Virus record (IMG/VR): IMGVR_UViG_3300010163_000110
Location: 1-32,850 of that record
Length of the DNA stretch: 32,850 nucleotides
Source: a virus
Direction: 5' to 3' (one strand)
The notes beneath the pieces are model-generated. The model had not been told where the DNA came from. It saw only the letters and a list, made by a program, of their open reading frames with translations, and did not search any database. Below are positions 6 to 32,223 of the stretch, piece after piece. Made by a program: the position numbers and the translations under genes. The stretch's first letter is position 1. The number at the start of each line of letters is the position of its first letter.

Positions 6-90
6 GCCCAGGTGGCGGAATAGGTAGACGCGCACGTTTCAGGTGCGTGTGCCGCAAGGCGTGCAGGTTCGATTCCTGTCCTGGGCACCA
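6..90 (+). tRNA. tRNA-Leu (anticodon CAG), class II with long variable arm, CCA encoded
   Basis: Cloverleaf read by eye. Acceptor GCCCAGG/CCTGGGC; D stem GCG/CGC; anticodon stem CACGT/GCGTG (one G-U). Loop TTCAGGT gives anticodon CAG followed by G37. Variable hairpin GCC-GCAA-GGC; T arm GCAGG-TTCGATT-CCTGT; discriminator A plus CCA. Confidence 0.9.
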
Positions 91-4554: not shown

Positions 4555-5671
4555 AGTATTTTTGTTTAATTACCCAAATCTGCTCTCTTCCTTTGACCAT
4601 AAAATCGCCGTCTGCGTCGTCGAATATTTCACGCCCGGCAGGCTTCTTCTTCACGGCCATTTTTTCGCGAGCCTTCACCAAGAAGTCGCCGTCGGCATCG
4701 TCGAAAATCTCCCGCAATCCTTCGCGTTCTACTTGCACCGTTGCCGTGGCGTCGCCGCACTCGAAGACAATCACGGCGGCGCGGTCGATACCGGTGTTTA
4801 TTTCCGGATACGAAACCGATACGACCGATTCACCATCCGTCCCGCTCGTTGGATCGATCGAAGCCTTTCGAGGGCTCTCGACAATCTTCCATTCGGCGTT
4901 CGCTGTAACGCGCAGCGTCTGCGGTGCGGTGTCATTCCACCCGAAATACAAGGTTTCGGGCTCGACGAAAACGGCGAAGCCTTCGTCTTGATAAACATGC
5001 AGCGATGCAAGCTGGTTTCCCGTGACTTTGCTCTCGACAATGAAGAGCGCATCCCGTACTGGTTCAAAGGCAGGGTTCTTTTTGACCGTAATCGTCACGT
5101 CCGTGGTCCCGGCGCAGCCCTCGAGGGGCTCGATCGTCATCCAATCCGGAATCTCTCCCACAAAGCGCCACGGCGTCGTGCTTACGACTTGAATCGTTTC
5201 GGAACCTCCGAGGCGATCGAAAGAGAGCGACGGCGGCAAGATCGATGCGAACTCGACGATCTCGGGGCATACATTCGAACGCAAAGACGATAGAATGACT
5301 TCGGCGAAGACGCCCGAACAGTTGTCTTTAAACCGCTGGTCGAAAGGCTGCACGGTGTAGGAAGGCACGACGAAGTCGGCGTCTTGCAGGGTCCGCAAGA
5401 TGTTTGCGAGCGTCTGCATCCCCGTCGAATGTATTTCGATGCGGTTCCGCTCGTCTTCACGCAGCCGATCTACGTAGAAGAGTGTAAGCCGGTATTCGTC
5501 CTCCGAGCTCTCCAGATTCACCGGGTGGCGGCCCTCCGTGAAGGCAAAAACACCATAACGGACGTTTTGCAGCTCGTTGAGCTTGTAGACGTCGTTTTCG
5601 ACGATCATCTGCACCGACGGTTGCCGCGCCGCCACTTGTGCGAGCTGGATTATCGTATCGCGCAGTGTCAT
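4517..5671 (-). CDS. Virion-module protein with two BACON/Ig-like domains and a C-terminal 27-aa tandem repeat
   Basis: Start at the internal ATG at 5671 (MTLRD), which forms an ATGA overlap with the upstream stop. PWRFVGEIPDWMTIEPLEGCAGTTDVTITVKKN and AEWKIVESPRKASIDPTSGTDGESVVSVSY resemble BACON repeats. REIFDDADGDF(L/M)VK occurs twice. Confidence 0.5.
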   Translation of the reverse strand: MTLRDTIIQLAQVAARQPSVQMIVENDVYKLNELQNVRYGVFAFTEGRHPVNLESSEDEYRLTLFYVDRLREDERNRIEIHSTGMQTLANILRTLQDADFVVPSYTVQPFDQRFKDNCSGVFAEVILSSLRSNVCPEIVEFASILPPSLSFDRLGGSETIQVVSTTPWRFVGEIPDWMTIEPLEGCAGTTDVTITVKKNPAFEPVRDALFIVESKVTGNQLASLHVYQDEGFAVFVEPETLYFGWNDTAPQTLRVTANAEWKIVESPRKASIDPTSGTDGESVVSVSYPEINTGIDRAAVIVFECGDATATVQVEREGLREIFDDADGDFLVKAREKMAVKKKPAGREIFDDADGDFMVKGREQIWVIKQKYYGLQEQIFGTKY

Positions 5672-6219
5672 CGGGGCAAAATTTTTCCGCGTGCACCTCC
5701 CAGGAAGATGCCGCACGTGGCCGAGCTGCGCAGATTCGCGCGGATGCGCCGGCAGTCGCACTCCTTCAATTCGGGGAAGTGTTCGCGGTTGTTCCACAAA
5801 TAGTCCTGAATCCGGTGTGCGTGCGAATCGGCGATCGCCTGGCTGTAGTTGGAGGCTGCAATCACTTCGTTGTAGGTCGCATTCTCGACCTTTTCGTCCG
5901 ACGTCTTTACGACGCCTTTATTTGCGACTTTGTAGCTTACCTTCATCGGGAGCCTGGCCGCCGCCTGGTAGGCAAGATAAAAGCCGATGCGGCCCATTAG
6001 GTCGGCGTAGTACTCGTTCCCCTCCGCCTTCACTTCGTCGGCCGATACGAGCTCCTTCAACTTTTCAAACAGAGCAGAACCGACGATCTCCTGGAGATCG
6101 ATCTCTTGCGCTTCGCGGATCGCCGGCAAAAGGTATTTGCCGGAAAGGTTGTCGTCGATCACGCACTGCTCCCGTACGAAGGCCTCCGACACTAAAAGTA
6201 CATTCGTGTGCTTTTCCAT
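5668..6219 (-). CDS. Head-tail connector/adaptor-like protein (gp6-like)
   Basis: ATG at 6219 overlaps the portal stop (TGATG); the track start at 6222 is GTG. The N-terminus (LLVSEAFVREQCVIDDNLSGKYLLPAIREAQ) resembles gp6-type connector openings. Directly follows the portal gene. Confidence 0.45.
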   Translation of the reverse strand: MEKHTNVLLVSEAFVREQCVIDDNLSGKYLLPAIREAQEIDLQEIVGSALFEKLKELVSADEVKAEGNEYYADLMGRIGFYLAYQAAARLPMKVSYKVANKGVVKTSDEKVENATYNEVIAASNYSQAIADSHAHRIQDYLWNNREHFPELKECDCRRIRANLRSSATCGIFLGGARGKILPR

Positions 6220-7343
6220 CACTTCACGGTGTTAGGTGCGCTTTCGAGCGTGAACGGGCGAATCGTGATCGCCCCCTTCGTCTCGAAGATGTAGTCGAAC
6301 ACGTCGCAAATCATTTTTTGCACCGGCATAATCTGCGTGCGGTTGTAGAGCTTAAAGGCCGATTCGTACTCTTCAGACGAAAAGCCGAGCGAATCTGTCG
6401 GAATTCCGAACAGGTTGGGGTTCGCCCGAAAGGCGGTGTAAATCTGCTGCCGGCTGTGTTTAGCCAACGTGTAGTAGCGTTCCCCGAAATCGTCGGCTTC
6501 GACCTTCTTCACGTCTACCGCCTTGTCGTCCATCGATTCGCTGAATACCAGCATTATGCGGTTCCCGTTCTTCGCGCCTCCGAATTTCTCGTTGATGTTC
6601 CGCTCGATCTCTTTTTGCTGCTCTTCGTCCGCGAAACTCCCTTTCAGCTGGATGATGTGCGACCCCATAAAGCCGTTGTGTATAGAGCTCAAGTGGTAGT
6701 CATCGATCGCCCGCTCGATCTCGCAGGCCTTGATGCTTCCAGCGTAGATCGGTTCGGGGTAGGCCATTGTCTTGCCCGTATTTTTCCAATAAAGTATGGC
6801 GGAATTGGGGTCTTTGAATTGAGGTACGAATCGCGGGTACACGACCGCCGTACCGCTATACGAGCCGTCGCCGAACTTTTCGGAATAGTAGAAACGCTCG
6901 CCGCTCGCATCCGATCGGACGTTTTCGAAGTCCAACGAATAGACTTCGCCGACCGTACGGTCCATTGCCCGGATGATCTGCATCGGGAACCCTCCGCAGG
7001 TGAAGTAATTCGTCGCGATTGCCCGAACCAGGTCGCGGATCGTCTCGCCTTTCCGATTCATCTTTCCGCTTTCGAAGCCCGGGACGTTGCAGATGATCTC
7101 GTCTCCGCACACGTAGTCCACCGAACCGTTTATAACGCTGCGAAGCGTCGCGACGTTCTTGCGAAGGTCGAGCAGGTAGCGCGGGTAGCCGTTCCGGTCG
7201 CCCCATGACACCATCCCGCCGCGGTGTGCTTCGCGCTCGGTCGGCTCGATGATCATTTGCTCGACGTAAGGGGCAATCGCCGCGAATTGGAACCGTTTAG
7301 CCGCGGTATTCGATATATTCGACGTCTCCTTCATATTCTTCAT
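6219..7343 (-). CDS. Portal protein
   Basis: 374 aa. The C-terminal FRANPNLFGIPT..LGFSSEEYESAFKLYNRTQIMPVQK pattern is typical of HK97-type portal proteins. Confidence 0.8.
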   Translation of the reverse strand: MKNMKETSNISNTAAKRFQFAAIAPYVEQMIIEPTEREAHRGGMVSWGDRNGYPRYLLDLRKNVATLRSVINGSVDYVCGDEIICNVPGFESGKMNRKGETIRDLVRAIATNYFTCGGFPMQIIRAMDRTVGEVYSLDFENVRSDASGERFYYSEKFGDGSYSGTAVVYPRFVPQFKDPNSAILYWKNTGKTMAYPEPIYAGSIKACEIERAIDDYHLSSIHNGFMGSHIIQLKGSFADEEQQKEIERNINEKFGGAKNGNRIMLVFSESMDDKAVDVKKVEADDFGERYYTLAKHSRQQIYTAFRANPNLFGIPTDSLGFSSEEYESAFKLYNRTQIMPVQKMICDVFDYIFETKGAITIRPFTLESAPNTVK

Positions 7344-7626
7344 TTTTTGCCTTGTACGTTCCTACTTGGAGCAATCCGGATTCGAGCGGGACCCCTCCAA
7401 TTTGGAAACAATAATCGTATTCGCCCTCGTCCGCATCTTCGGGCAATGCAATGTCTGCGATGTAATATTGCAGCGTTTCAGCCTTCACCGGTGCGGGTAT
7501 GTCAAATCGCCGCTTCGAGACTGTCCCCAAAATCGAAAGGACCTCATCGCCTTGGGGCGTGTCTATATGACGTGTCCGAGGTATCGCGACGGTTTGCAGA
7601 TAGGGCGATCGGTGCAGGTATAGCAT
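7297..7626 (-). CDS. Small hypothetical protein, first gene of the portal/fibre block
   Basis: Start taken at the internal ATG at 7626, which is 12 nt downstream of the TATATATC motif. The longer track ORF would run through the terminator and motif. Confidence 0.4.
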   Translation of the reverse strand: MLYLHRSPYLQTVAIPRTRHIDTPQGDEVLSILGTVSKRRFDIPAPVKAETLQYYIADIALPEDADEGEYDYCFQIGGVPLESGLLQVGTYKAKNEEYEGDVEYIEYRG

Positions 7627-7638
7627 GCTTTTTTTCTT

Positions 7639-7646
7639 GATATATA
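7639..7646 (-). promoter_or_regulatory. Conserved TATATATC motif (copy 1), candidate phage late promoter element
   Basis: Minus strand reads aaCATATATATCaagaaaaaaagcATG. It follows terminator 7667-7697. Confidence 0.45.
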
Positions 7647-7666
7647 TGTTACCCGAAAATCGGACA

Positions 7667-9303: not shown

Positions 9304-10392
9304 CTACTTCGCCCCCACGATTCGAAGGGCGTTGTCCAGACCGCGGTCACCCGTCTTGCCGGCGCCCGCTGCCTCTTTGTACTCTTCGTGCGCCGGCTTC
9401 GCTGCCGGCGTCTTGCTCATCTTGTCGAGCTGCTCGGCCATCTCCGATTTGCTGGATTCCAACCCGTCGACCTTCCCCTCCAGCGCCTTGACGCGGTCGG
9501 CCAGCTTGTTGTACATCGCCCACAGCTCGTCTTCCTGTTCCTTGGCGTCGGAAGCCGGCTCTGCCTCCGCGGCTTTCGTCTGCTCTTTGGCCTCGACCTC
9601 GGCGCGAACGTCCACGATCTCGGAGACCTTGCCACCGGCGACCTTGATCGTCTTCCCGTCTTCCGTCTTGTAGTCGCCGTCCGCCGCGGGCTTTCGCTCG
9701 CCATCCTCTTCGAGGTAGACGCTGTAGCCCTCTTTGAGGTCTTCGTCGCCCTCCCAGATCAGAACGCCGTTATCGGTCGTAACGGCGCCGAACTGGACAA
9801 GCACCTTTTTTAAAATTGCTTTCAGTCCCATATTTTTTGCGTTTTGGTTTGTTGTTTCGCTGCGCATGATCGTGTGGTAGGCCTCGATCGAAAACCCGCG
9901 ATAGGTTCCGTCTTTGATCTTCGCCCAGACTTCGTCGTTCGTTACGTGGTACTCGCCGAAAAGGCTGCCTTCCTCGATCTCATCGAAACCGGCGGGAGCA
10001 ATTCCGGCCGCCTTGTCTTTGATGAAGAGCTGCAGCAGGTGAACGCCGGGGACCTCCGTGCCCGCTTCGTGCATCAGGTTGACGCGGTTCTGCCGGTTGT
10101 CGAAAAGGAACCTTTCGGCCATCTTCCGGATGTCTTCCGCGCGAAATACGAGGTAGTACTCCACATCGCCCTCCCGCCGGTAGATCGGGAAGTCGGCGCG
10201 CATCAGCACGCCGCGGACGATTCGCTTTTCTTCGTCTGCCACGGCGTACGTCTGTACCCGCTCTTGCTTTTCAAAGGCTTGGAACCGGCTCTCGACTGCA
10301 GGGGCATCCACGAGCGAAACGCGGACGATTCCGTCGTCTTCGCTCATCAGCTCCGCGCGGTAGACCGGTACCCCGTTTAACTTCGATTCCAT
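9304..10392 (-). CDS. Prohead protease (XkdF-like) fused to a scaffold-like acidic coiled-coil
   Basis: The N-terminal ~180 aa resemble the XkdF-type protease domain (VSLVDAPAVE ... NLMHE ... GFSIEAY). The C-terminal half is E/K/A-rich. Upstream of the capsid gene. Confidence 0.65.
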   Translation of the reverse strand: MESKLNGVPVYRAELMSEDDGIVRVSLVDAPAVESRFQAFEKQERVQTYAVADEEKRIVRGVLMRADFPIYRREGDVEYYLVFRAEDIRKMAERFLFDNRQNRVNLMHEAGTEVPGVHLLQLFIKDKAAGIAPAGFDEIEEGSLFGEYHVTNDEVWAKIKDGTYRGFSIEAYHTIMRSETTNQNAKNMGLKAILKKVLVQFGAVTTDNGVLIWEGDEDLKEGYSVYLEEDGERKPAADGDYKTEDGKTIKVAGGKVSEIVDVRAEVEAKEQTKAAEAEPASDAKEQEDELWAMYNKLADRVKALEGKVDGLESSKSEMAEQLDKMSKTPAAKPAHEEYKEAAGAGKTGDRGLDNALRIVGAK

Positions 10393-10405: not shown

Positions 10406-10413
10406 GATATATA
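10406..10413 (-). promoter_or_regulatory. Conserved TATATATC motif (copy 2)
   Basis: Minus strand reads cgTATATATCCagaaaaaaaagaATG. It is preceded by a GAACAGC/GCTGTTC hairpin plus T6 just after the tape-measure stop. Confidence 0.45.
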
Positions 10414-10440
10414 CGTTTTTAAAAAAGCGGTCCGAACAGC

Positions 10441-12679: not shown

Positions 12680-15631
12680 TTAATACGTTATAGTAGGTTC
12701 TTCGCGACCCGATTTGTGTATCACTTCAAGCTCGACCTCTTCGTCTCCGCTTTTAAAAATGAATGTATAACGCCTGTCGTAGAGTGTGGCGTATTCTGTC
12801 GAAATAACCACATCCGTCGTTCCGGCCGGTCCGTTCATCGGCGTAATTGTGAAGCTGTTGTCGTAGTAGAACACGCGCCAAGAACCGGCCGCCGTGATCC
12901 GGACCTTTTCCGATCCACTGTTTAAAATCTCGATCGAAGTAGGCTTAATCGAAAGGCCGTACCCGAATCCGTCTTGCCCATCGGTGTAGTTCGCTTTGTC
13001 CTTCACCTTCACGAACTCGCACTGCACCGTGGCCGAAGAGGTCAGATCGTAGTTCGATATTTTGTTGAGCGCCCAAATCGCGCCGTCGAAGTAGTAGAAC
13101 TTTCGGAGCAGACTTTCGCCGGGCTCCATGCCTTCGAGGTTCACGTAGCAGGTCACGGACTTCGTGTCGACGTCGTAACGGTCGGCCAGATAGCGCCGCC
13201 ACCATTGGGCGTACAAGTTCGAATCGGGGCGCACCTCGACGTCCGGGATGTCGATTTCTGCCGGGGTCCCGAAATCCCACGACTTCGAAATTACCCCGCC
13301 CGAATCGTACCGGCCGAACATCGGGAGCGGCGGCGCCGTCGTGCCTCCGTTTAAGAGCCAGCAGGGCTCGCCGTCGTTTAAGGTCGTCATCTCCGTGCGG
13401 TCGTCCGTCAGGATGAAATCTTTGTACGCGTCCCCCTTGTAGGTACCTCGGTAGAACAGCAGCACGTCGCGTGAATCGAGCGCCTCGTTTCCCTCTTCAT
13501 GGAATTGCGCCTTGCTGAAGGCGTCGTATGTGAGGTAGACGGGATTCATGTATTCGATCGTGTCGGACGGCGACGGTGTCGGCACGTTCAAGTCGATCGA
13601 ATCGGCGCCTCCATTCCGGTAGAGCCGGTAGGTGTGGCCGGAATCCACGAAAACGGAGGGGAAGTGGCTCTGCATTCGAGTGATGTTGATAAAGTATTTT
13701 TCCCGCTCGAGCACTTCGGCAGTTCCCTTGAACACGTTCCCGTTTAAAACGTCTTTGTGCTCGGAGTTGAAGTCGTAGCCGGTATTGACGCGCTGCACGC
13801 CGTATTCGCGGCCGTACACATCTTGGTAGTATTTCACGTATTCGCTTTCTTCCTGCTCGACGTTGAAATCGTACCACTTCTTGTCCGCCAGAACCGGATT
13901 GATCGTTATTTTCTTCGATCGGTCGATCCGCTTTTGCAAGTCGACCGTTTCACCGGTGTAGAGCGTATTTCGAGACACAATTCGGATGCGGCGTTCGGAT
14001 TTGTCGAAAAGGAATCCGAGCCCGAACAGCTTGCAGTACGATAGGAGGTAATCGGCGGGCGTCTTTTCCGTATCCAACAGCATCGCCTTCGTCACGAGCG
14101 TTCCGGAGCGTATATAGCCGGTCCCCTCGTATTCAGCCTTGCTCCCGAGGTTCTGGAATGCGAAACCGGCGATCGGCACCGGCTCGTAATTAGCCTCAAT
14201 GCTTTCGTCCGTCCCGTGCAAAATGTAAAGCGTTTGCGGTGTAGTCCCCCAGTTGTACTCGAATTGGAGATGAATCGATCCGACGCGCTGCGCGCCTTCT
14301 ACCGTGAATACCGCCGACGGCCCATTCCAGACCGGCACACCGTTTTCGTTCACGTCGAAGTCCCCGGTAAGGACTTCTGCACCCTCTTCGTTTGAGTAGG
14401 CGCCGCCGGAAAAAGAGACCTTTTTTGACCGGTGAAGGATTCCTCCGTCGAGCCCGTACACGATCAACTGACAAACAATTTCGGAGAACTCGTGCACGCG
14501 ATGAAGGCGCAGCCGTGTCCCCGGCTCGAGCGGCACTCCAGTACTCGTTTTCGGTTGAATCTCTACCTTTATATCGGCCGTTGTCTGGCTTATATCTTTG
14601 TTCGATGACACCGTTAAGGAAAAAGGGTCGTATTCTTCCTCATCGAAACTTAAAACCGCTTTCCCGCTGTCCGCCTCGAGCTCGTAGGTGTTCAACAGCG
14701 GCAGCGTGATCCACGCCTGTGCATAGTAAGGGTTCCCGCCGCTGAAAAAGTCGGAATCGAGCTCGACTTCATAACCTCCGTTGTTTTCAGGCTTGCAGCA
14801 TGCCTCGATGATTGCCCGCATCGAAACGACCGGGCGCTGCAAGTACGACCGGAGATCCTTCGTCTCCCACTCGGTGTACTCCTTTGAGAGCTCGACCAGG
14901 GACCAGCCGTCGACCGTTGTGTATTCCGCTCCGCTGCTGTCCGAAGCGGTGGAGGTTAGGCCGGCAATGAGCGGGCGGATCAGGGCTTTGTCGGCAGCGA
15001 AGTCGCCGCCCGAAGGTATCCCATTATAGGCCGGCGCGAAGTTGATAACGGTCCATTTACTCCGAACCGCATTCGCATCCGAAAGCGTTCGCCACGCTTC
15101 TCGAACGGCGTTTGCCGTGATATAGAAGTTGAGCTCGGCCGACGGGTCCACATTGCCCAAAAAGTCGAGCGACGACAACTTCTTCGCCTCTCCTTCTTCG
15201 TCGTAGGAGAGGGAGTAGAAAAACGAGCCGAGACCGCCGTAGAGTGAAACGTGATAAGTCACATCGTCGCCGTCGCGCTCTATTTTGTCCAGTTTTGCGT
15301 AACCTTGTTCGATGATCTTAGAACCTTCGTAAAGCACGAACGGTGCGCGCAGCAGGGGATTGAACGACGCGCCGGTCTCGATCGTCCGCACGCTGCTGCG
15401 GCGGGCCCGGCTGGTCGCCGCCGGCATCACCGTGCGGCGGTCGAGGCGATAGGCTGCTCCGAAGATCGCGTTGTTCGCGGCTGTCCCCGGTATTTTTATC
15501 GACTTGCTGAAGCTGTTCTTTACAATCGTCGGATTGCTCAAATCTTCAGCGGTGTATGTGAATTGGATCGCCGTTTTTCCGTCAAGATCGACGAGCTTTT
15601 CAGCAATGTACAGTGAAATATCCCGTTTCAT
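12680..15631 (-). CDS. Large tail-tip/baseplate protein with C-terminal BACON-like Ig domain
   Basis: Start at the internal ATG at 15631 (MKRDISLYI), which forms an ATGA overlap with the upstream stop. 983 aa. The C-terminus SWRVFYYDNSFTITPMNGPAGTTDVVIST is BACON-like. Adjacent to the tape-measure gene. Confidence 0.55.
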   Translation of the reverse strand: MKRDISLYIAEKLVDLDGKTAIQFTYTAEDLSNPTIVKNSFSKSIKIPGTAANNAIFGAAYRLDRRTVMPAATSRARRSSVRTIETGASFNPLLRAPFVLYEGSKIIEQGYAKLDKIERDGDDVTYHVSLYGGLGSFFYSLSYDEEGEAKKLSSLDFLGNVDPSAELNFYITANAVREAWRTLSDANAVRSKWTVINFAPAYNGIPSGGDFAADKALIRPLIAGLTSTASDSSGAEYTTVDGWSLVELSKEYTEWETKDLRSYLQRPVVSMRAIIEACCKPENNGGYEVELDSDFFSGGNPYYAQAWITLPLLNTYELEADSGKAVLSFDEEEYDPFSLTVSSNKDISQTTADIKVEIQPKTSTGVPLEPGTRLRLHRVHEFSEIVCQLIVYGLDGGILHRSKKVSFSGGAYSNEEGAEVLTGDFDVNENGVPVWNGPSAVFTVEGAQRVGSIHLQFEYNWGTTPQTLYILHGTDESIEANYEPVPIAGFAFQNLGSKAEYEGTGYIRSGTLVTKAMLLDTEKTPADYLLSYCKLFGLGFLFDKSERRIRIVSRNTLYTGETVDLQKRIDRSKKITINPVLADKKWYDFNVEQEESEYVKYYQDVYGREYGVQRVNTGYDFNSEHKDVLNGNVFKGTAEVLEREKYFINITRMQSHFPSVFVDSGHTYRLYRNGGADSIDLNVPTPSPSDTIEYMNPVYLTYDAFSKAQFHEEGNEALDSRDVLLFYRGTYKGDAYKDFILTDDRTEMTTLNDGEPCWLLNGGTTAPPLPMFGRYDSGGVISKSWDFGTPAEIDIPDVEVRPDSNLYAQWWRRYLADRYDVDTKSVTCYVNLEGMEPGESLLRKFYYFDGAIWALNKISNYDLTSSATVQCEFVKVKDKANYTDGQDGFGYGLSIKPTSIEILNSGSEKVRITAAGSWRVFYYDNSFTITPMNGPAGTTDVVISTEYATLYDRRYTFIFKSGDEEVELEVIHKSGREEPTITY

Positions 15632-16611
15632 CTTCTTTCCATTTGCTGGGAGGCCTCGCACTTGATCGTGTACGTTACGAGCTTGCGGCCTTGGTTCTTG
15701 AAGCTCTTAATATCCACCGACTTGTCCGTAAGAACGACCGGAATCGTTTCGGCGGTCGTCAGGTCATACAAATAGACGTCCACCGATCGGAGCAGGTGCA
15801 ATTCCAGCCGACGGGATTGCTCGTCCGTTAGATAGGGAGTGTAGAGGGTCCACGACCTTTTGATCTCGTTCAGATAATCCGTTTTCCCGCGCGCCGTGGG
15901 ATCTGTGTTGTCGTAGGCCTGCTCGTATTGCGCGCGCGTGTAGGCGGCATTCTCCGTGGAGGCGTCTGCCAGCACGAAAGTATCCCACCCGCCGAATGCG
16001 TTCACGTAAATCAACATATAACGGGCGCACGTCTTTTTCACATCCCAGGTGCGCGCCCCGACGCGCAGCTTTACCACCTCTTGGCCTGTCGCAAGTAAGC
16101 TCGGCAAGACGTTCCCGGCAACAAGCCCGTAAGGGGCTTTTAAAATCACTTTGTCCGTTGCAGATGTTCCGTCGCTGAAGGTAGACTGGAACTCGAGGCC
16201 GTCCGATCGGTATACGGAATAGAAAAAGGGTTGCCGGGGATCGAGGATGCTGTTAATCGGCGCCGCAGCGTCTTCCGGATCGAAAGCGCGCGCCCGATCG
16301 TAGGACCAATCACGCACGAAGCTATATGTATGCCCCCCAGGCGTCTCTTCCGTCATGTTCTTTACGGTGAATGATTGTATATTATAATCCAGAAACAAGA
16401 CGCAAGTCTCACCGACCTTTGGAATCGTCAGGACGTTTCGGAGGTAGTCGCGGCAAATTTCGTTGATCTTGATCTCGTTCGCGGCGGCGCCCGGCTTCTT
16501 GTACGAGGTCCCTGCATAGACCAGTTCGCCGCCCGGCTCCGTATAAATGCGATAGTCCACTTTTTCGGCCGATCCGAGTGAAACCGTATAGTCTTTCCAA
16601 ATTGGCTCCAT
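15628..16611 (-). CDS. Tail structural protein (possibly distal-tail-like)
   Basis: 327 aa, first gene of the tail-tip block, translationally coupled to the 983-aa protein. Function inferred mainly from position. Confidence 0.4.
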   Translation of the reverse strand: MEPIWKDYTVSLGSAEKVDYRIYTEPGGELVYAGTSYKKPGAAANEIKINEICRDYLRNVLTIPKVGETCVLFLDYNIQSFTVKNMTEETPGGHTYSFVRDWSYDRARAFDPEDAAAPINSILDPRQPFFYSVYRSDGLEFQSTFSDGTSATDKVILKAPYGLVAGNVLPSLLATGQEVVKLRVGARTWDVKKTCARYMLIYVNAFGGWDTFVLADASTENAAYTRAQYEQAYDNTDPTARGKTDYLNEIKRSWTLYTPYLTDEQSRRLELHLLRSVDVYLYDLTTAETIPVVLTDKSVDIKSFKNQGRKLVTYTIKCEASQQMERR

Positions 16612-16628: not shown

Positions 16629-16636
16629 GATATATA
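16629..16636 (-). promoter_or_regulatory. Conserved TATATATC motif (copy 3)
   Basis: Minus strand reads ttgTATATATCCgtaaaaaaacaacgcaATG, immediately after terminator 16637-16671. Confidence 0.45.
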
Positions 16637-16671
16637 CAAAAAGCCCGAAGCGGTCGGAATCGCCTCGGGCT
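16637..16671 (-). terminator. Rho-independent terminator after the terminase/chaperone block
   Basis: Minus strand reads AGCCCGAGGCGATTCCGACCGCTTCGGGCT followed by TTTTT. Confidence 0.8.
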
Positions 16672-19818: not shown

Positions 19819-20073
19819 CTACCTCTTCGCTGGTAACTTACCGTCCGACTGCTTGAAATCGAAATAAAGCCGCCCCAATCGCTTCAAAGTGGCAAAAACG
19901 CAATGCCCGCACGAACTGTCCGTCGCGATCTGCCGCTTTTCGGCCCGCGAAAGCACGGAATCCATCAGCGCCACGCCGGCGCGTCCCGGGTATCGCAAGA
20001 AGTCCGAAAACACGGCTTTGTGGAAGTGATCCTCGAAGGGCGCGAGCTGGTCGAACTCTTCCCGCGAAATCAT
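19819..20073 (-). CDS. Hypothetical protein (84 aa)
   Basis: Start at the internal ATG at 20073 (MISREEF), which forms an ATGA overlap with the upstream stop. Confidence 0.5.
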   Translation of the reverse strand: MISREEFDQLAPFEDHFHKAVFSDFLRYPGRAGVALMDSVLSRAEKRQIATDSSCGHCVFATLKRLGRLYFDFKQSDGKLPAKR

Positions 20074-20402
20074 AATCCGAATTTTTGGTTGCACAACTCG
20101 ATGACGCGGCCGAAGCCTTCCCGGAGCATCCCCAAAAGGTTGTGAATCTGCACCGAAAAATAGGAAAGCACGGCGATGTAGGCGACCAGATAGACCGAAA
20201 AACGATCGGCGAAGAGGGTCGCGTAAATCAGGCAGCACCACCACGTCATGCACTTCGAGCAGCTAACGAGCGGCAGCTTTACGGCCGCCTCCTTCACCCC
20301 GAACGCCGACGCGATGCCGCTCCGAAGGCTCGCAATAAAGCCCGAAAGGTCAACGACGTAAACGACGACGACCGCAAGGCAAAACAGTTCAAAGTAAATC
20401 AT
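20070..20402 (-). CDS. Small multi-pass membrane protein (110 aa)
   Basis: Start at the internal ATG at 20402 (MIYFELFCLAVVVVYVV), which forms an ATGA overlap with the upstream stop. Three hydrophobic segments and a CSKCMTWWC motif. Confidence 0.5.
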   Translation of the reverse strand: MIYFELFCLAVVVVYVVDLSGFIASLRSGIASAFGVKEAAVKLPLVSCSKCMTWWCCLIYATLFADRFSVYLVAYIAVLSYFSVQIHNLLGMLREGFGRVIELCNQKFGL

Positions 20403-20668
20403 CTTTTCAGTTGTTTTTTTAGTTTTTCCTGAATCCTCAAAACGATAAGACGCATCGAAGTTTTTGAAGACTGAAACGCGGCCGCCAGCTTCCGCAGCGA
20501 TCCCAAATGCGCGTACAAAACGAGCACAACACGTTCGGATGGAGTTAACCCATAGCGGATCGCCAGCTTCATCCGAAGCGCCCTGTCGTCGTCTTTCGTG
20601 CATCGGTCCGTGTCCGGCTCGTAGATCGGAGCCAGTTCGCGAAAGGTCTCAATCGCTTTCTCCGTCAT
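20399..20668 (-). CDS. Sigma-70 region-4-like HTH protein (89 aa)
   Basis: LTPSERVVLVLYAHLGSLRKLAAAFQSSKTSMRLIVLRIQEKL fits the region-4 pattern L.p.er.v..L....s..eiA.....s...v......kL. Confidence 0.5.
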   Translation of the reverse strand: MTEKAIETFRELAPIYEPDTDRCTKDDDRALRMKLAIRYGLTPSERVVLVLYAHLGSLRKLAAAFQSSKTSMRLIVLRIQEKLKKQLKR

Positions 20669-20966
20669 GGCTCCAAAAATTTAAACCCGCAAAGTCATTC
20701 GTCCGCATTCGAAATCGTCTCACTTGGATGTGATACGGCGAAGTTGTTGAGTAAAACTGGTTTTCGATGATTCGAACGAGAAAATAATTAATTTGCTCGT
20801 TTTCGTACAGCGAAACCAACGCCTCCTCATCGTATCGGAGCAGGGCTTCGTAGATGATTTGCGCAAGGTCGTCGAGCCCTTTTGCTGGACCTCGGCAAAC
20901 GTTCGCGATCAATCGCTCCACTCGCCGCTCGGTCGCCAAAAGCTCGACTACCTCGCGTCTCGTCAT
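20649..20966 (-). CDS. Sigma-70 region-2-like protein (105 aa)
   Basis: DDLAQIIYEALLRYDEEALVSLYENEQINYFLVRIIENQFYS fits the ECF region-2 pattern eDl.Qe....l............yL..i..N. Confidence 0.5.
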   Translation of the reverse strand: MTRREVVELLATERRVERLIANVCRGPAKGLDDLAQIIYEALLRYDEEALVSLYENEQINYFLVRIIENQFYSTTSPYHIQVRRFRMRTNDFAGLNFWSHDGESD

Positions 20967-21484
20967 AGGCGATCGGGTATTTTGAAGAGCTGTTTATCGG
21001 CTTTTCGAATCCACGCCGGTTTTTCCATGCCGCCCAGCCGCAGCGGGGCAAAATCGTCCATCCGGGAGCCCGTACGCGCCATTTCGTTCAACATCTCGCC
21101 GTAGCTGTAGACCTTGCACCGTAAGTCGCACGACAACACATCCGCCATCGTGAAGGTACGGTATCGGCAATTCGCAAGTACCTGACCGATAGCGAAGTCC
21201 AACCGTTCGGCGCTCATCTCTGTTTTTGCGATCCGCTCGGCCAGCAGGATGAAGAACCCCCGGAAGTCGTCCCCGGCCATTGCCGGGAATGCCGCCCGGA
21301 GCTTCGCCAGGGAGGCGTGAATCTGCGCCGGCGGCGCCGGAGCGCCCCGGAACGCGGAAACTTCACAACTCCCACTCTTGCGGAGTGTTAGCGAGAGCAA
21401 TGCCTTCGGCGACGGCTTTTGCAAAGTCGAGATCGCTTGTTCGCGGAGCCTTTCCAGTGCCGCGCCCACATTGTGTTCGTTCAT
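20963..21484 (-). CDS. Hypothetical protein (173 aa), start uncertain
   Basis: The track ORF start at 21484 overlaps the upstream gene by 122 nt. The next in-frame ATG is at 21280. Confidence 0.4.
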   Translation of the reverse strand: MNEHNVGAALERLREQAISTLQKPSPKALLSLTLRKSGSCEVSAFRGAPAPPAQIHASLAKLRAAFPAMAGDDFRGFFILLAERIAKTEMSAERLDFAIGQVLANCRYRTFTMADVLSCDLRCKVYSYGEMLNEMARTGSRMDDFAPLRLGGMEKPAWIRKADKQLFKIPDRL

Positions 21485-22319
21485 CGCGTTTTTCGTTGTT
21501 CATTCGTTCTTCAGCTTTCCGCAAGTAGTTGCGAAAGTGTCGTTTAGCATCCGACAACGGCTTCACCGTCGCCCCGTTGAGTTTCTGCTCGGTGCAAAAT
21601 TCGTGGATCATTCCATCGATCCAATCCCGCGACTTGTGCAGGTTCATGCACAAAGCCTCGATCCACACCGTCTCCGCCTGCATCGCCGCCTCGAGCTGCT
21701 CGATCGGAATCGTTACGTCAGCCGCCGCGGCCGTCTCCGTACCTTTTTTCGCGCAACTTTTTTGGCTTTTCGGCGATTTTGGCGTAGAGTTAGGCGCACT
21801 TCCCCCGAAAATCGAAAGCTCTTCGCCCGCGATAGTGGAGGTAGAAGAAGATAATTCTCGACCGTTAGGGAGAGAATTATATATACTCTTCTCTTCTTGT
21901 ATTACATTTGTATTACATTTGTATTCGTCGGCCGATACATTTGTATTACATTTGTATCCTTCCGCTTCCTTTGCCCATCGCTTATTGATTGCAGCTCTAC
22001 GTTTTACGCTAATCTCGTCCTTCGATTTCATTCGCTTCAGGAAGCCGCCGGAGTAGAAGTACTTACCGTCATCGGTAAAGACAAATAACCCGTATCCCTC
22101 GACTACCGCCTTTATTTTGGCGGCGTCTACACGAAGGTCAAAGGCTAACATGTTGTAATCTTTGACACTCATGTAAGTAGGCTCCTCGCGCAGTCGCTCG
22201 AGAATCATAAAGTAGATGCCGTAACCCTCCGCACCCATTTTAGCACGAAGCGGAATCAGCTTGTCAGAGTTTCTCGCATTTGAATCGTGCGGAAACCAGT
22301 TGCGCTTGCTGTCCCCCAT
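21363..22319 (-). CDS. Replication initiation protein (DUF4373 / Lin1244-like N-terminal domain)
   Basis: WFPHDSNARNSDKLIPLRAKMGAEGYGIYFMILERL matches the DUF4373 opening from memory. The central linker is encoded by iterons. Confidence 0.7.
   Translation of the reverse strand: MGDSKRNWFPHDSNARNSDKLIPLRAKMGAEGYGIYFMILERLREEPTYMSVKDYNMLAFDLRVDAAKIKAVVEGYGLFVFTDDGKYFYSGGFLKRMKSKDEISVKRRAAINKRWAKEAEGYKCNTNVSADEYKCNTNVIQEEKSIYNSLPNGRELSSSTSTIAGEELSIFGGSAPNSTPKSPKSQKSCAKKGTETAAAADVTIPIEQLEAAMQAETVWIEALCMNLHKSRDWIDGMIHEFCTEQKLNGATVKPLSDAKRHFRNYLRKAEERMNNEKRDERTQCGRGTGKAPRTSDLDFAKAVAEGIALANTPQEWEL
21900..21957. repeat. Four 11-bp iterons TATTACATTTG (two pairs split by CGTCGGCCGA), candidate origin
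   Basis: Copies at 21900, 21911, 21933 (interrupted) and 21944. Flanked by an AT-rich stretch at 21868-21899. Confidence 0.6.
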
Positions 22320-23172: not shown

Positions 23173-23180
23173 GATATATA
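23173..23180 (-). promoter_or_regulatory. Conserved TATATATC motif (copy 4)
   Basis: Minus strand reads aaccTATATATCAcacaaaacacacaacgcaATG. It shares ACAACGCAATG with copy 3. Confidence 0.4.
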
Positions 23181-23197
23181 GGTTTTATAAAAATCGG

Positions 23198-26865: not shown

Positions 26866-27252
26866 TTAATCGCTTGGATTGTCGTAGATGTTCCCAACTA
26901 TTTCGACGATAGCACCTGGAGACAATTGTATAGAGACGACCCCGTTAGGTCCTTCTCTATTTGCCATAAAGCACCCGTTACTAAATGTTACGTACCGTAT
27001 TTCCCCATCCTGGTATTTCAACAAGTCTCCTTCGTATATATCGGTCCCGTTTTTATCGTGTAGGCCAGTGAATTGGCCGATAGTTTCAGGGTAAACCAGC
27101 TTGATTGTAAAGTCGCTATCGTGGGACCCAAAGTCCCCGACATGGAATGCGACACCAGTCTGCCCTGTTGTTGAGGCGATTAAATAGCCGATCGCCCATC
27201 GTTTGTTCTCAAGCCGTTTCCCCCTAAATAAAACGGATTCTACCTCTCTCAT
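26866..27252 (-). CDS. YopX-family protein
   Basis: TIGQFTGLHDKNGTDIYEGDLL ... VEIVGNIYDNPS matches the YopX signature. Confidence 0.8.
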   Translation of the reverse strand: MREVESVLFRGKRLENKRWAIGYLIASTTGQTGVAFHVGDFGSHDSDFTIKLVYPETIGQFTGLHDKNGTDIYEGDLLKYQDGEIRYVTFSNGCFMANREGPNGVVSIQLSPGAIVEIVGNIYDNPSD

Positions 27253-30669: not shown

Positions 30670-30854
30670 ACCATTTTAATCGCTATTTATTTGCTTTTTG
30701 TACGTTTTTTATTACCTTGTGTTATATCTCTCATTAACACAATGCAAATGTATAACAAAATGAATTAAAAACCAAATATTTTTACAACGTTTTGATATAA
30801 TTTAATTGTTGTATGTTGTAACAATTTGTAATTCAATAAAATAATTTTGTGCTT
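30670..30854. promoter_or_regulatory. Divergent switch region with promoter boxes and operators
   Basis: Minus-strand -33 TTTG, then a 19-20 nt spacer, then -7 TACATTTG (30745-30752). Plus-strand TAATTTTG (30842-30849) ends 5 nt before the ATG at 30855. Inverted repeat TTGTGTTA-N10-TAACACAA (30717-30742). TTGTAACAA at 30816-30824. Confidence 0.5.
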
Positions 30855-31199
30855 ATGAATAATATCTTAGAAAACATTAAGTCTATTCGCCAATCTTTGG
30901 GGTTTGGGCAGGAATACATGGCCGAGAAGTTGAACATGACGCAGGCCGGTTATGCGTTATGGGAGAAGGGAGCCAGGGAATTGACCTATAACAATCTGAA
31001 TAGAATCGCCGAAATCTTTTCAATGAGTGTCATCGATGTGATTGCCTATCCGAAACATTATGTTGATTCTTCGACCTTTTCGAACCCGAAGGATGACAAA
31101 GTGTCCGTAATATTTGAAGTTAGCAGATCGCAGCGCGATTATTTACTGCGACTTGTTATGGGAGATGATAAAAAAATAATAAATGTCAATGGAGATTAA
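30855..31199 (+). CDS. XRE-family HTH repressor (CI-like)
   Basis: IKSIRQSLGFGQEYMAEKLNMTQAGYALWEKGARELTYNNLNRIAEIF is a classical HTH_3 domain. ATG at 30855 is preferred over the GTG at 30849. Confidence 0.8.
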   Translation: MNNILENIKSIRQSLGFGQEYMAEKLNMTQAGYALWEKGARELTYNNLNRIAEIFSMSVIDVIAYPKHYVDSSTFSNPKDDKVSVIFEVSRSQRDYLLRLVMGDDKKIINVNGD

Positions 31200-31617
31200 A
31201 GAGGTCAAATACAACGAATATTATGAAAAAGAAATAAATAATCTATATACATTCATCGAAAAATGCGAAGATGATTTTGAAAACAAAATAACCTATGTTT
31301 CTGCCGGGGCTTTAGGTTTTGCTATAAACTTTTTAGAAAAGAGTGGTGATAGTTTTTGCACATTTCCACTCAAGTGTTGCATTGCTTTATTCTTTATCTC
31401 TCTATTATCTGGCACTTTAGCCCCTTACATTATTTCAAGAATGGCTATAAAAATAAAGGGACACATACACAAAGCTAAAGATGACGGGGTGCAACAAGAC
31501 TTCACTAAAAATACGAAGACCCTAACGAAATGGTCTAATTTATCTAACAAATTAACTATTTATTGCTTATTTATTGGAGCATTTATATTCTCTATCTATT
31601 TATTTTTTAAATACTAA
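31183..31617 (+). CDS. Unrecognised membrane protein (144 aa, 2-3 TM)
   Basis: Overlaps the repressor stop by 17 nt. Hydrophobic segments CCIALFFISLLSGTLAPYII and LTIYCLFIGAFIFSIYLFF. Confidence 0.6.
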   Translation: MSMEIKEVKYNEYYEKEINNLYTFIEKCEDDFENKITYVSAGALGFAINFLEKSGDSFCTFPLKCCIALFFISLLSGTLAPYIISRMAIKIKGHIHKAKDDGVQQDFTKNTKTLTKWSNLSNKLTIYCLFIGAFIFSIYLFFKY

Positions 31618-31627
31618 TTTTATAAAT

Positions 31628-31771
31628 ATGGATGAATTAAAAAAAGGTTACACAACACCATCTAATCCTTCTACCAAAACATCCGAGGCTTTTGGAAACA
31701 CTAAAATTAGAAGCGATAAATTTACAAGGCATTACGAACCAAGTAGGCCCCCAAAAGAACCAAAAAAATGA
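31628..31771 (+). CDS. Small basic, low-complexity protein (47 aa)
   Basis: ATG at 31628 (MDELKKGY). Its stop forms an ATGA overlap with the next gene. Confidence 0.35.
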   Translation: MDELKKGYTTPSNPSTKTSEAFGNTKIRSDKFTRHYEPSRPPKEPKK

Positions 31772-32223
31772 AAAAAGTTTTAATTACATTGCTTTACTTG
31801 TTTATAACAAGTAGCGCCTATTGTCAGATTCAAGTAGGGAGAGAGAAAACAAAAATAGAGACGATTGGAAACATTCGTAAAGAGACCTATATCTATAAGC
31901 AAAATGGGATGTATTATCTTGATTTGGGGACGAGTAATCAATTCGACCAAGCTATAATTTTCAACTTGGGGACAGGAAAAGAAGCCGCATTAAAATCGTG
32001 TGACGATTTGGCCGCATTATGCGAGACGTTAGATAAGGATGAATTTGTAGAAATAATTGATGCAGAGGGCCAAAATTTTAGTATTACAAAACAAAATGAC
32101 AATAAAAATGGCCTTGCTCTCATTAATTTTTTTGCAAAAGATCAAATACACGCCGGAACTATAGGCCTTTTTAAAATGGATATAAACAAGATAAAAAAGA
32201 AGATTGAACAATATAATAAATGA
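31768..32223 (+). CDS. Unrecognised secreted or lipoprotein-like protein (151 aa)
   Basis: Signal peptide MKKVLITLLYLFITSSAYC. Last gene before terminator 32260-32288. Confidence 0.6.
   Translation: MKKVLITLLYLFITSSAYCQIQVGREKTKIETIGNIRKETYIYKQNGMYYLDLGTSNQFDQAIIFNLGTGKEAALKSCDDLAALCETLDKDEFVEIIDAEGQNFSITKQNDNKNGLALINFFAKDQIHAGTIGLFKMDINKIKKKIEQYNK

Follow-up and report, generated by a model that had tools for sequence, protein, structure and literature searches.

In the 32,850-nucleotide viral sequence IMGVR_UViG_3300010163_000110 from IMG/VR (positions 1 to 32,850 of that record, herein referred to as the window), two small overlapping open reading frames (ORFs), A and B, are on balance probably two real genes that jointly encode one sigma factor of the extracytoplasmic function (ECF) type, with sigma-2 and sigma-4 carried on two polypeptides. 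The lengths of these ORFs in amino acids (aa) and of their overlap in nucleotides (nt), together with the parts of their junction, are as follows.

20649-20966, minus strand: ORF A, ATG start, 105 aa, TGA stop codon at 20649-20651; proposed N-terminal, sigma-2-like subunit.
20399-20668, minus strand: ORF B, ATG at 20666-20668, 89 aa; C-terminal, sigma-4 subunit.
20649-20668, minus strand: overlap of A and B, 20 nt, ATGACGGAGAAAGCGATTGA, running from the ATG of B to the TGA of A; proposed site of translational coupling.
20669-20685, minus strand: A/T-rich stretch before the start of B, TTTAAATTTTTGGAGCC, holding a B-frame TAA, a T5 run, and GGAG.

The ATG of A lies 298 nt from the ATG of B, so that the frame of B is +1 relative to that of A. 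The B frame is closed by the TAA at 20681-20683, five codons upstream of the ATG of B, and the T5 run occupies positions 20675-20679, just upstream of the same ATG. Together, the two products have 194 aa. These coordinates, the 20-nt overlap, the +1 frame, the B-frame TAA, and the total length had been listed in an earlier note on this DNA, and all of them are present in the sequence. The earlier note had also described A as region-2-like and B as region-4-like, and had considered a genuine two-subunit sigma factor, a programmed shift, and a frameshift mutation or error.

For ORF B, the region-4-like character was borne out by both profile and fold. ORF B aligns with positions 98-165 of the 165 positions of the sigma70-ECF profile TIGR02937 (E = 6.8e-4, 19.3 bits), and the B protein of the related locus L005 matches the same profile at E = 4e-5 and Sigma70_r4_2 at E = 4e-4. 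Searches of Pfam and PHROGs with ORF B alone gave weak sigma hints. A search with the B profile retrieved 97 proteins, 94 of which are stand-alone proteins of 81-113 aa. Many stand-alone B homologues have precomputed PF08281 (Sigma70_r4_2), PF13936, or PF18024 domains, and two B homologues bear the JGI name "sigma24 family protein". The AlphaFold2 model of ORF B (predicted local distance difference test score, pLDDT, 90.2) shows a bundle of four helices, preceded by an N-terminal helix and a loop. Its best fold matches in the PDB are almost all sigma-4 domains of ECF sigma factors, including SigD (3vfz/3vep), SigL (3hug), sigmaE (2h27), SigC (2o8x), AlgU, and SigW, with Foldseek probabilities near 1 and root-mean-square deviations of 1.5-2.6 Å over 57-63 residues. 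In the predicted structure, ORF B joins an equivalent of the sigma-2/sigma-4 linker (N-terminal helix and loop) to a sigma-4 domain of four helices that contains a helix-turn-helix, and both regions 4.1 and 4.2 of such a domain are present.

A minority of relatives carry A-like and B-like parts in one chain, and these fused proteins are, as judged by their profile matches, bona fide sigma70-ECF-like proteins. The best of them, P0114, scores 43.2 bits against TIGR02937 (E = 3e-11), with residues 15-184 aligned to profile positions 6-164 of 165. It is the only protein above the curated cutoff of 42.9 bits, which neither ORF of the window reaches (B, 19.3 bits; A, unmatched). The fused protein P0113 matches the sigma70-ECF models at E = 6e-9, and P0005, P0006, P0018, P0124, P0157, and P0181 match them at E values of about 1e-5 to 1e-6. 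For P0124, end-to-end alignments were also obtained with the SigE-family, SigZ, PRK12511, and PG0214 models. Fused members are collinear with the sigma70-ECF models in a single envelope, from profile positions 5-18 to about 160-165, and a "positive control sigma-like factor" model is among their weak matches. Both ORFs of the window are related to such proteins: ORF A shares 43% identity with residues 1-89 of P0114 (E = 7e-25) and 44% with the N-terminal half of P0124 (E = 6e-21), and ORF B shares 34% identity with residues 139-185 of P0114 (E = 2e-7).

The family is large, very widespread, and mostly split. Exhaustive searching of 1.84 billion representatives with HMMER yielded 2,346 matches at E ≤ 1e-3, a count that includes proteins matching only the B (helix-turn-helix) part, since the profile spanned this part too, and 852 matches at E ≤ 1e-10. 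Among the best 150 matches, about 140 were A-only proteins (92-133 aa) and 10 were fused (166-226 aa). A-B fusions make up 10 of 170 A-family proteins (about 6%) and fall into at least seven separate clades among split members; this clade count comes from a rough neighbour-joining tree, and a few of the "fusions" could be assembly indels. P0253 (179 aa), which is below the B threshold, is probably an eleventh fusion. The remaining members, about 94%, are stand-alone A or B proteins. Because fusion or fission is recurrent, A and B would act as one unit, by the Rosetta-stone argument; A and B also co-occur in all loci.

From the sequence comparisons, it was concluded that ORF A would be the domain at the N-terminus of an ECF-like sigma factor of high divergence, and the homology of ORF A to sigma-2 is probable. 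The AlphaFold2 model of ORF A (pLDDT 82.5) has six predicted helices and a disordered acidic tail at residues 94-105. In BFVD, this model matches the N-terminal parts of uncultured-phage proteins of 160-232 aa with probabilities of 0.99-1.0 and TM-scores (TMq) of at most 0.75, and one of these matches is annotated as "RNA polymerase sigma-70 region 2". The contribution of the A part to the sigma70-ECF matches was estimated by cutting fused proteins at the linker and scoring each half separately. For P0114, the N-terminal half gave 12.3 bits against TIGR02937 (E = 0.09, profile positions 5-62) and the C-terminal half 31.0 bits; the N-terminal half contributed about 8 bits in P0113 and 5-9 bits in P0124. 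Additionally, three different members gave weak Sigma70_r2 matches (E = 0.013, 0.03, and 0.15) in a common register.

Several observations weigh against the two-subunit sigma reading, and its main weakness is the sigma-2 identity of ORF A, which is moderately supported. ORF A alone has no match in Pfam, NCBIfam, or PHROGs. Its model has no fold match in the PDB (best E = 5), despite the many sigma-2 structures there, and PDB sequence-profile searches with the A family retrieved no sigma-2. The N-terminal halves of fused members, taken alone, reach at best E = 0.09 against TIGR02937, with 5-12 bits. In relatives, the candidate promoter element TATATTTC (described below) resembles what is presumably the housekeeping -7 element of Bacteroidetes, TAnnTTTG, and the bipartite motif of the window might be a promoter for the host sigma factor. 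Finally, RNA polymerase binding, association of A with B, translational coupling, and promoter specificity are all predictions made from sequence. As a check of sigma homology, profile searches, which the earlier note had proposed, were clear for ORF B and indirect for ORF A; the region-2-like description of A stands through the fused relatives, and ORF A by itself remains unmatched in the three family databases.

The same observations give some room to an alternative in which A and B form a two-component activator instead of a sigma factor. According to this alternative, B would be a sigma-4-like helix-turn-helix activator working with the host holoenzyme, and A, instead of a sigma-2 domain, would be an unrelated helical protein serving as its partner or co-activator. 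Besides the missing PDB fold match and the lack of a significant sigma-2 profile match for ORF A alone, it is favored by the breadth of the B family: its profiles also match the non-sigma helix-turn-helix proteins TyrR and UPF0122, and a PDB sequence-profile search with this family returned mixed helix-turn-helix proteins, including the sigma-4 domain of SigW at E = 0.009. The resemblance of the candidate -10-like element to what is presumably a host-type promoter element points the same way. However, fused members are collinear with the sigma70-ECF models, and their N-terminal halves add 12, 8, 5, and 9 bits to the match. The weak Sigma70_r2 matches fall in one register in three members, the total size and domain order fit ECF sigma factors, and the BFVD fold matches of ORF A include the phage protein annotated as sigma-70 region 2. 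The activator alternative is considered unlikely, although it is the likeliest of the alternatives.

The reality of the split was examined by comparing the A-B junction among relatives. An independent assembly from another sample (L016, sample ERR13956259), about 99% identical to the window, has the same junction, and both ORFs are called as genes there. It differs from the window by 9 substitutions in 620 nt. As read by eye from the alignment, six substitution events fall within A and B, and four of these are synonymous. The first relative found (P0002 in locus L001) has an A protein 63% identical to ORF A, a quite different DNA composition, and again a 20-nt ATG...TGA overlap with a +1 offset; L005, with 36% identity, has a 14-nt overlap and a +1 offset. 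A profile search then yielded 16 further proteins, 13 of them A-only and three A-B fusions. For mapping of the junctions, the DNA of relatives was scanned with hidden Markov models of A and B, and sixteen further IMG/VR loci were added. A tblastn search of 50,697 phage records with A and B gave no match, and no relatives were found in single-sequence scans of viral contigs with A and B or in the genome-contig scan. In the window and about 24 distinct related loci (26-65% identity), A is followed by B in all cases, with the following junctions.

20-nt overlap, B frame +1: window, L016, L001-4.
14-nt overlap, B frame +1: L005/L015, L012, L007, L008, L011.
11-nt overlap, B frame +1: L006, L017, L018.
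8-nt overlap, B frame +1: L019-21, L031, L032.
4-nt ATGA overlap, B offset 2: L010, L022-28, L030.
1-nt gap, B offset 1: L029.
Gene of the 3'-phosphoadenosine 5'-phosphosulfate (PAPS) reductase family, 275 aa, at 2813-3640 of L009, exactly between A and B, B offset 2: L009.

In L017, the A protein is 92% identical to that of L009, yet A and B overlap by 11 nt. Because these two genes are adjacent in so close a relative, the insertion of the PAPS-reductase gene in L009 is recent. In all loci, B starts with an ATG aligned to positions 1-8 of the B profile, and a stop closes the B frame 1-6 codons before this ATG in most of them.

These junctions bear on the possibility that a single fused sigma factor of 188 aa arises at the T5 run, by programmed +1 ribosomal frameshifting or by slippage during transcription, A and B then not being independent proteins. 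The means for such an event exist in the window, where tRNA-Phe slipping by +1 at AAT-TTT-T would bring A into the B frame immediately past the B-frame TAA. Homopolymer runs are also found at the equivalent place in L001 (G6) and L005 (A5), and the fused family members indicate that a single chain can function in principle. On the other hand, no homopolymer run was found at that place in L012, L007, and L011, so that there is no conserved shift site. The frame offset is +1 in some loci and 2 in others, among them those with the 4-nt ATGA overlap; L029 has a 1-nt gap and L009 a whole intervening gene; and B has its own conserved ATG, with its frame closed shortly upstream in most loci. Since the junctions and frames vary and B keeps a homologous ATG, a family-wide programmed frameshift is excluded, and the programmed shift considered in the earlier note is very improbable for the window as well. 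An unstructured initiation region of B, in a host without Shine-Dalgarno sequences, would explain the A/T-rich runs equally well, and the stretch 20669-20685 is read here as the translation-initiation region of B, without a conserved slippery site. Low-level slippage giving a minor fused by-product in the phage of the window alone is possible.

That the split is a pseudogene, a frameshift mutation, or a homopolymer sequencing or assembly error in a normally single ORF, as deletion of one T of the T5 run, which would fuse the ORFs, and the existence of rare fused relatives might suggest, is ruled out for practical purposes, because the independent assembly shows the same junction and the relatives examined at the DNA level are all split save three fused proteins, about 94% of the family being stand-alone and both halves being conserved as proteins. 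The comparison of orthologues proposed in the earlier note thus showed close and distant relatives split at the same place, and no intact copy differing by a 1-nt indel; the few fused relatives are distant (24-44% identity) and have longer linkers. Of the explanations considered in that note, the two-subunit sigma is the one that gained support, and the other two were rejected. The A-B arrangement is not due to chance, as the pair recurs in each related locus examined. By these comparisons, the split is real and conserved in a large uncharacterised phage gene family: A and B are separate, co-encoded polypeptides with their own ATGs and variable junctions, as expected for a two-subunit factor, the sigma-2 identity of A being the less certain part. 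Despite its conservation, ORF B is missing from the called genes of the window's own record, of L001 (850-1113), and of L007 and L008 (2802-3056). As the B ORF is often missed by gene callers, annotation pipelines under-report the sigma-4 subunit of this family.

The window is a phage or prophage genome in which the genes from about 300 to 30400 lie mostly on the minus strand. The surroundings of the A-B pair are as follows.

Upstream of A, minus strand: phrog_26490 gene, HNH gene, Lin1244_N/DUF7833 replication initiator (21363-22319), and a 173-aa ORF.
Downstream of B, in order: 110-aa membrane protein (20070-20402, minus strand; its ATG overlaps the stop codon of B as ATGA), a small ORF (96 aa in L016), a DUF5681/phrog_2412 small-terminase-like gene, and a 487-aa large terminase.
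4517-5797, minus strand: BACON-domain ORF, 426 aa, E = 2e-11.

The near-identical copy of the large terminase in L016 carries Terminase_6N. Virion structural proteins, a head protease-like gene, and a portal gene are located farther downstream. The A-B pair lies upstream of the terminase genes at a distance of three small genes, which is where a phage late-gene activator is usually located. The BACON domain is typical of Bacteroidota and their phages, and the leaders in the window are A-rich and have no Shine-Dalgarno sequences. Because of these two features, a host from the Bacteroidota is suggested.

Two side observations concern the genes upstream of A. Within the replication initiator, about 230 nt (22050-22281, minus strand) share 69-77% DNA identity with replication-initiation genes of Lactobacillus and Enterococcus phages, which is unusually high across apparently different host phyla. 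The 173-aa ORF (20963-21484, minus strand) would overlap the replication initiator by about 120 nt if its first ATG were used; since its equivalent in L016 is called as 105 aa, the start is probably internal, near 21280. Two others concern the ends of the window. A tRNA-Leu(CAG) gene at 6-90 (plus strand), on the strand opposite to the phage genes, is either a phage tRNA or the tRNA of a prophage attachment site. At 30849-32223, the genes switch to the plus strand and include an HTH_3 (Cro/CI-type) regulator at 30849-31199, the GC content falls to 0.33 at 31001-32000, and this region at the contig end could be foreign DNA or else a module for lysogeny or regulation.

A repeated motif in the window provides candidate promoters for the A-B system. 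The element TATATATC occurs five times in the window versus 0.24 expected. All four minus-strand copies have (G/T)(A/T)CCG exactly 14 nt upstream and an A-rich leader with an ATG 12-19 nt downstream, whereas the fifth copy, on the plus strand at 27035-27042, is without the CCG element. The full pattern CCG-N14-TATATATC is thus found four times (0.21 expected), each time in a short intergenic gap ahead of an operon.

23173-23197, minus strand: candidate promoter heading the operon of the phrog_26490 gene, HNH, replication initiator, 173-aa ORF, A, B, and terminase genes.
16629-16653, minus strand: candidate promoter ahead of gene 15628-16611 and of the large genes that follow this gene; a terminator-like hairpin precedes the promoter.
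10406-10430, minus strand: candidate promoter upstream of the head protease-like gene 9304-10392 (protease and capsid region).
7639-7663, minus strand: candidate promoter located after a terminator-like hairpin and ahead of gene 7297-7626 and the portal gene.

One of the large genes downstream of 15628-16611 matches a virion structural protein family. Among the relatives, a one-mismatch form, CCG-N14-TATATTTC, was found directly upstream of the A gene in L008 (about 2467-2491) and L031 (about 1271-1295). The CCG-N14-TATATATC sites are the best candidates for cognate, possibly autoregulated, promoters of the pair.

With A and B taken as the two subunits of a sigma factor, the following mechanism can be proposed. 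A ribosome terminating at the TGA of A would reinitiate at the ATG of B 20 nt upstream, yielding roughly equal amounts of the two subunits. A would bind the clamp helices of the RNA polymerase beta-prime subunit and read a -10-like element, and B would bind the beta flap and read the -35-like CCG element, with the N-terminal helix and loop of B (conserved D15, Y16, and F23) standing in for the sigma-2/sigma-4 linker. Together, A and B would direct the host core polymerase, probably that of a member of the Bacteroidota, to phage promoters, for which the four CCG-N14-TATATATC sites are the best candidates, and would thereby switch on the packaging and structural operons. The downstream CxxC membrane protein may modulate the system.

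This membrane protein was found by tblastn in 27 related loci with 28-96% identity (e.g., L001 1115-1450 and L014 836-1081). Its gene usually lies directly downstream of B and, in L014, directly downstream of the fused sigma gene. Because it adjoins the sigma genes in relatives, A, B, and the membrane protein can be considered a conserved three-gene module. The motifs VDxSGF and PxxCxxCMTWW are conserved in the protein, which also has about three hydrophobic segments, two of them exceeding the hydropathy cutoff, the third (about residues 55-65) being read by eye. It belongs to no Pfam or PHROG family, and neither an anti-sigma zinc finger nor another known domain was found for it in Pfam. Since sigma/anti-sigma operons usually share such a layout, a role as anti-sigma factor or regulator may be speculated by analogy. 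A broader picture, tentative and rather doubtful as a whole, would be that of a family of sigma factors of phages, probably of Bacteroidota, working mainly as a coupled sigma-2/sigma-4 heterodimer with repeated switching between split and fused forms, controlled by a membrane-anchored CxxC regulator (anti-sigma or tether) and served by its own promoter, CCG-N14-TATATATC, including that of its own operon. If true, this would be a self-contained, autoregulated, natural split-sigma switch for late genes.

Very few examples of two-subunit sigma factors are known, SigO-RsoA being the main one and T4 gp55/gp33 a looser one. The family described here spans hundreds of clusters at 50% identity, with the split form as the rule and fused forms recurring. 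Such a natural set of split and fused proteins could be compared for the role of the sigma-2/sigma-4 linker in holoenzyme formation and promoter escape. The pair is also a candidate late-gene switch for poorly understood gut or rumen Bacteroidota phages, together with candidate promoters and a candidate membrane regulator, and it may supply natural parts for split-sigma logic in synthetic biology. In the literature on split phage ECF sigma factors, a description of this family was not found, and only SigO-RsoA and T4 gp33/gp55 turned up. Both phage ECF sigma factors and split-domain ones escaped the survey of the ECF reclassification (PMC7826278).

In comparison with single-chain ECF (group IV) sigma factors, including late activators of the PBSX Xpf type, the A-B pair would have the same make-up of sigma-2 plus sigma-4 and has a similar total length of about 190 aa. 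As for sigma-like late activators and ECF sigma factors, the pair lies upstream of terminase genes, and a gene for a small membrane protein follows directly, as in many sigma/anti-sigma pairs. In contrast to these factors, about 94% of members have their chain interrupted between sigma-2 and the linker, the sigma-2 half matches no sigma-2 of Pfam or the PDB, and the membrane protein has no known anti-sigma domains.

T4 gp55/gp33 is a looser analogue, like A-B in being phage-encoded and consisting of two small proteins. In T4, gp55 amounts to a minimal sigma-2-like protein, whereas gp33 binds to the beta flap but does not read DNA, and the late promoters have no -35 element and depend on the sliding clamp. 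Unlike gp33, B keeps a full sigma-4 helix-turn-helix, and the candidate promoters of A-B are bipartite. Also unlike the T4 pair, A and B are demonstrably derived from a single ECF-like chain or interconvertible with it. No homology to gp55 or gp33 was detected, no search aimed at it having been made. As A and B would, gp55 and gp33, two small proteins that bind RNA polymerase, jointly replace the host sigma factor for late genes (PMC12867686, PMC7824862).

The closest named system is SigO-RsoA (YvrI-YvrHa) of Bacillus subtilis, in which sigma-4 and sigma-2 are located on separate proteins (PMC8103513, PMC7826278), and A-B is best read as a further two-subunit sigma factor of that kind. No SigO or RsoA model was among the NCBIfam matches of A, B, or the fused members, and no direct sequence comparison was made. 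Both pairs are of comparable size, diverge from canonical ECF sigma factors, and were missed by ECF classification. However, SigO-RsoA is chromosomal in a Firmicute, whereas A-B is phage-encoded, probably in a phage of Bacteroidota. The gene order in A-B is sigma-2 followed by sigma-4, like a single chain cut at the linker, whereas the operon name yvrI-yvrHa suggests the opposite order. Finally, the A and B genes, in distinction from those of SigO-RsoA, overlap and are apparently translationally coupled, and their family includes both fused and split forms.

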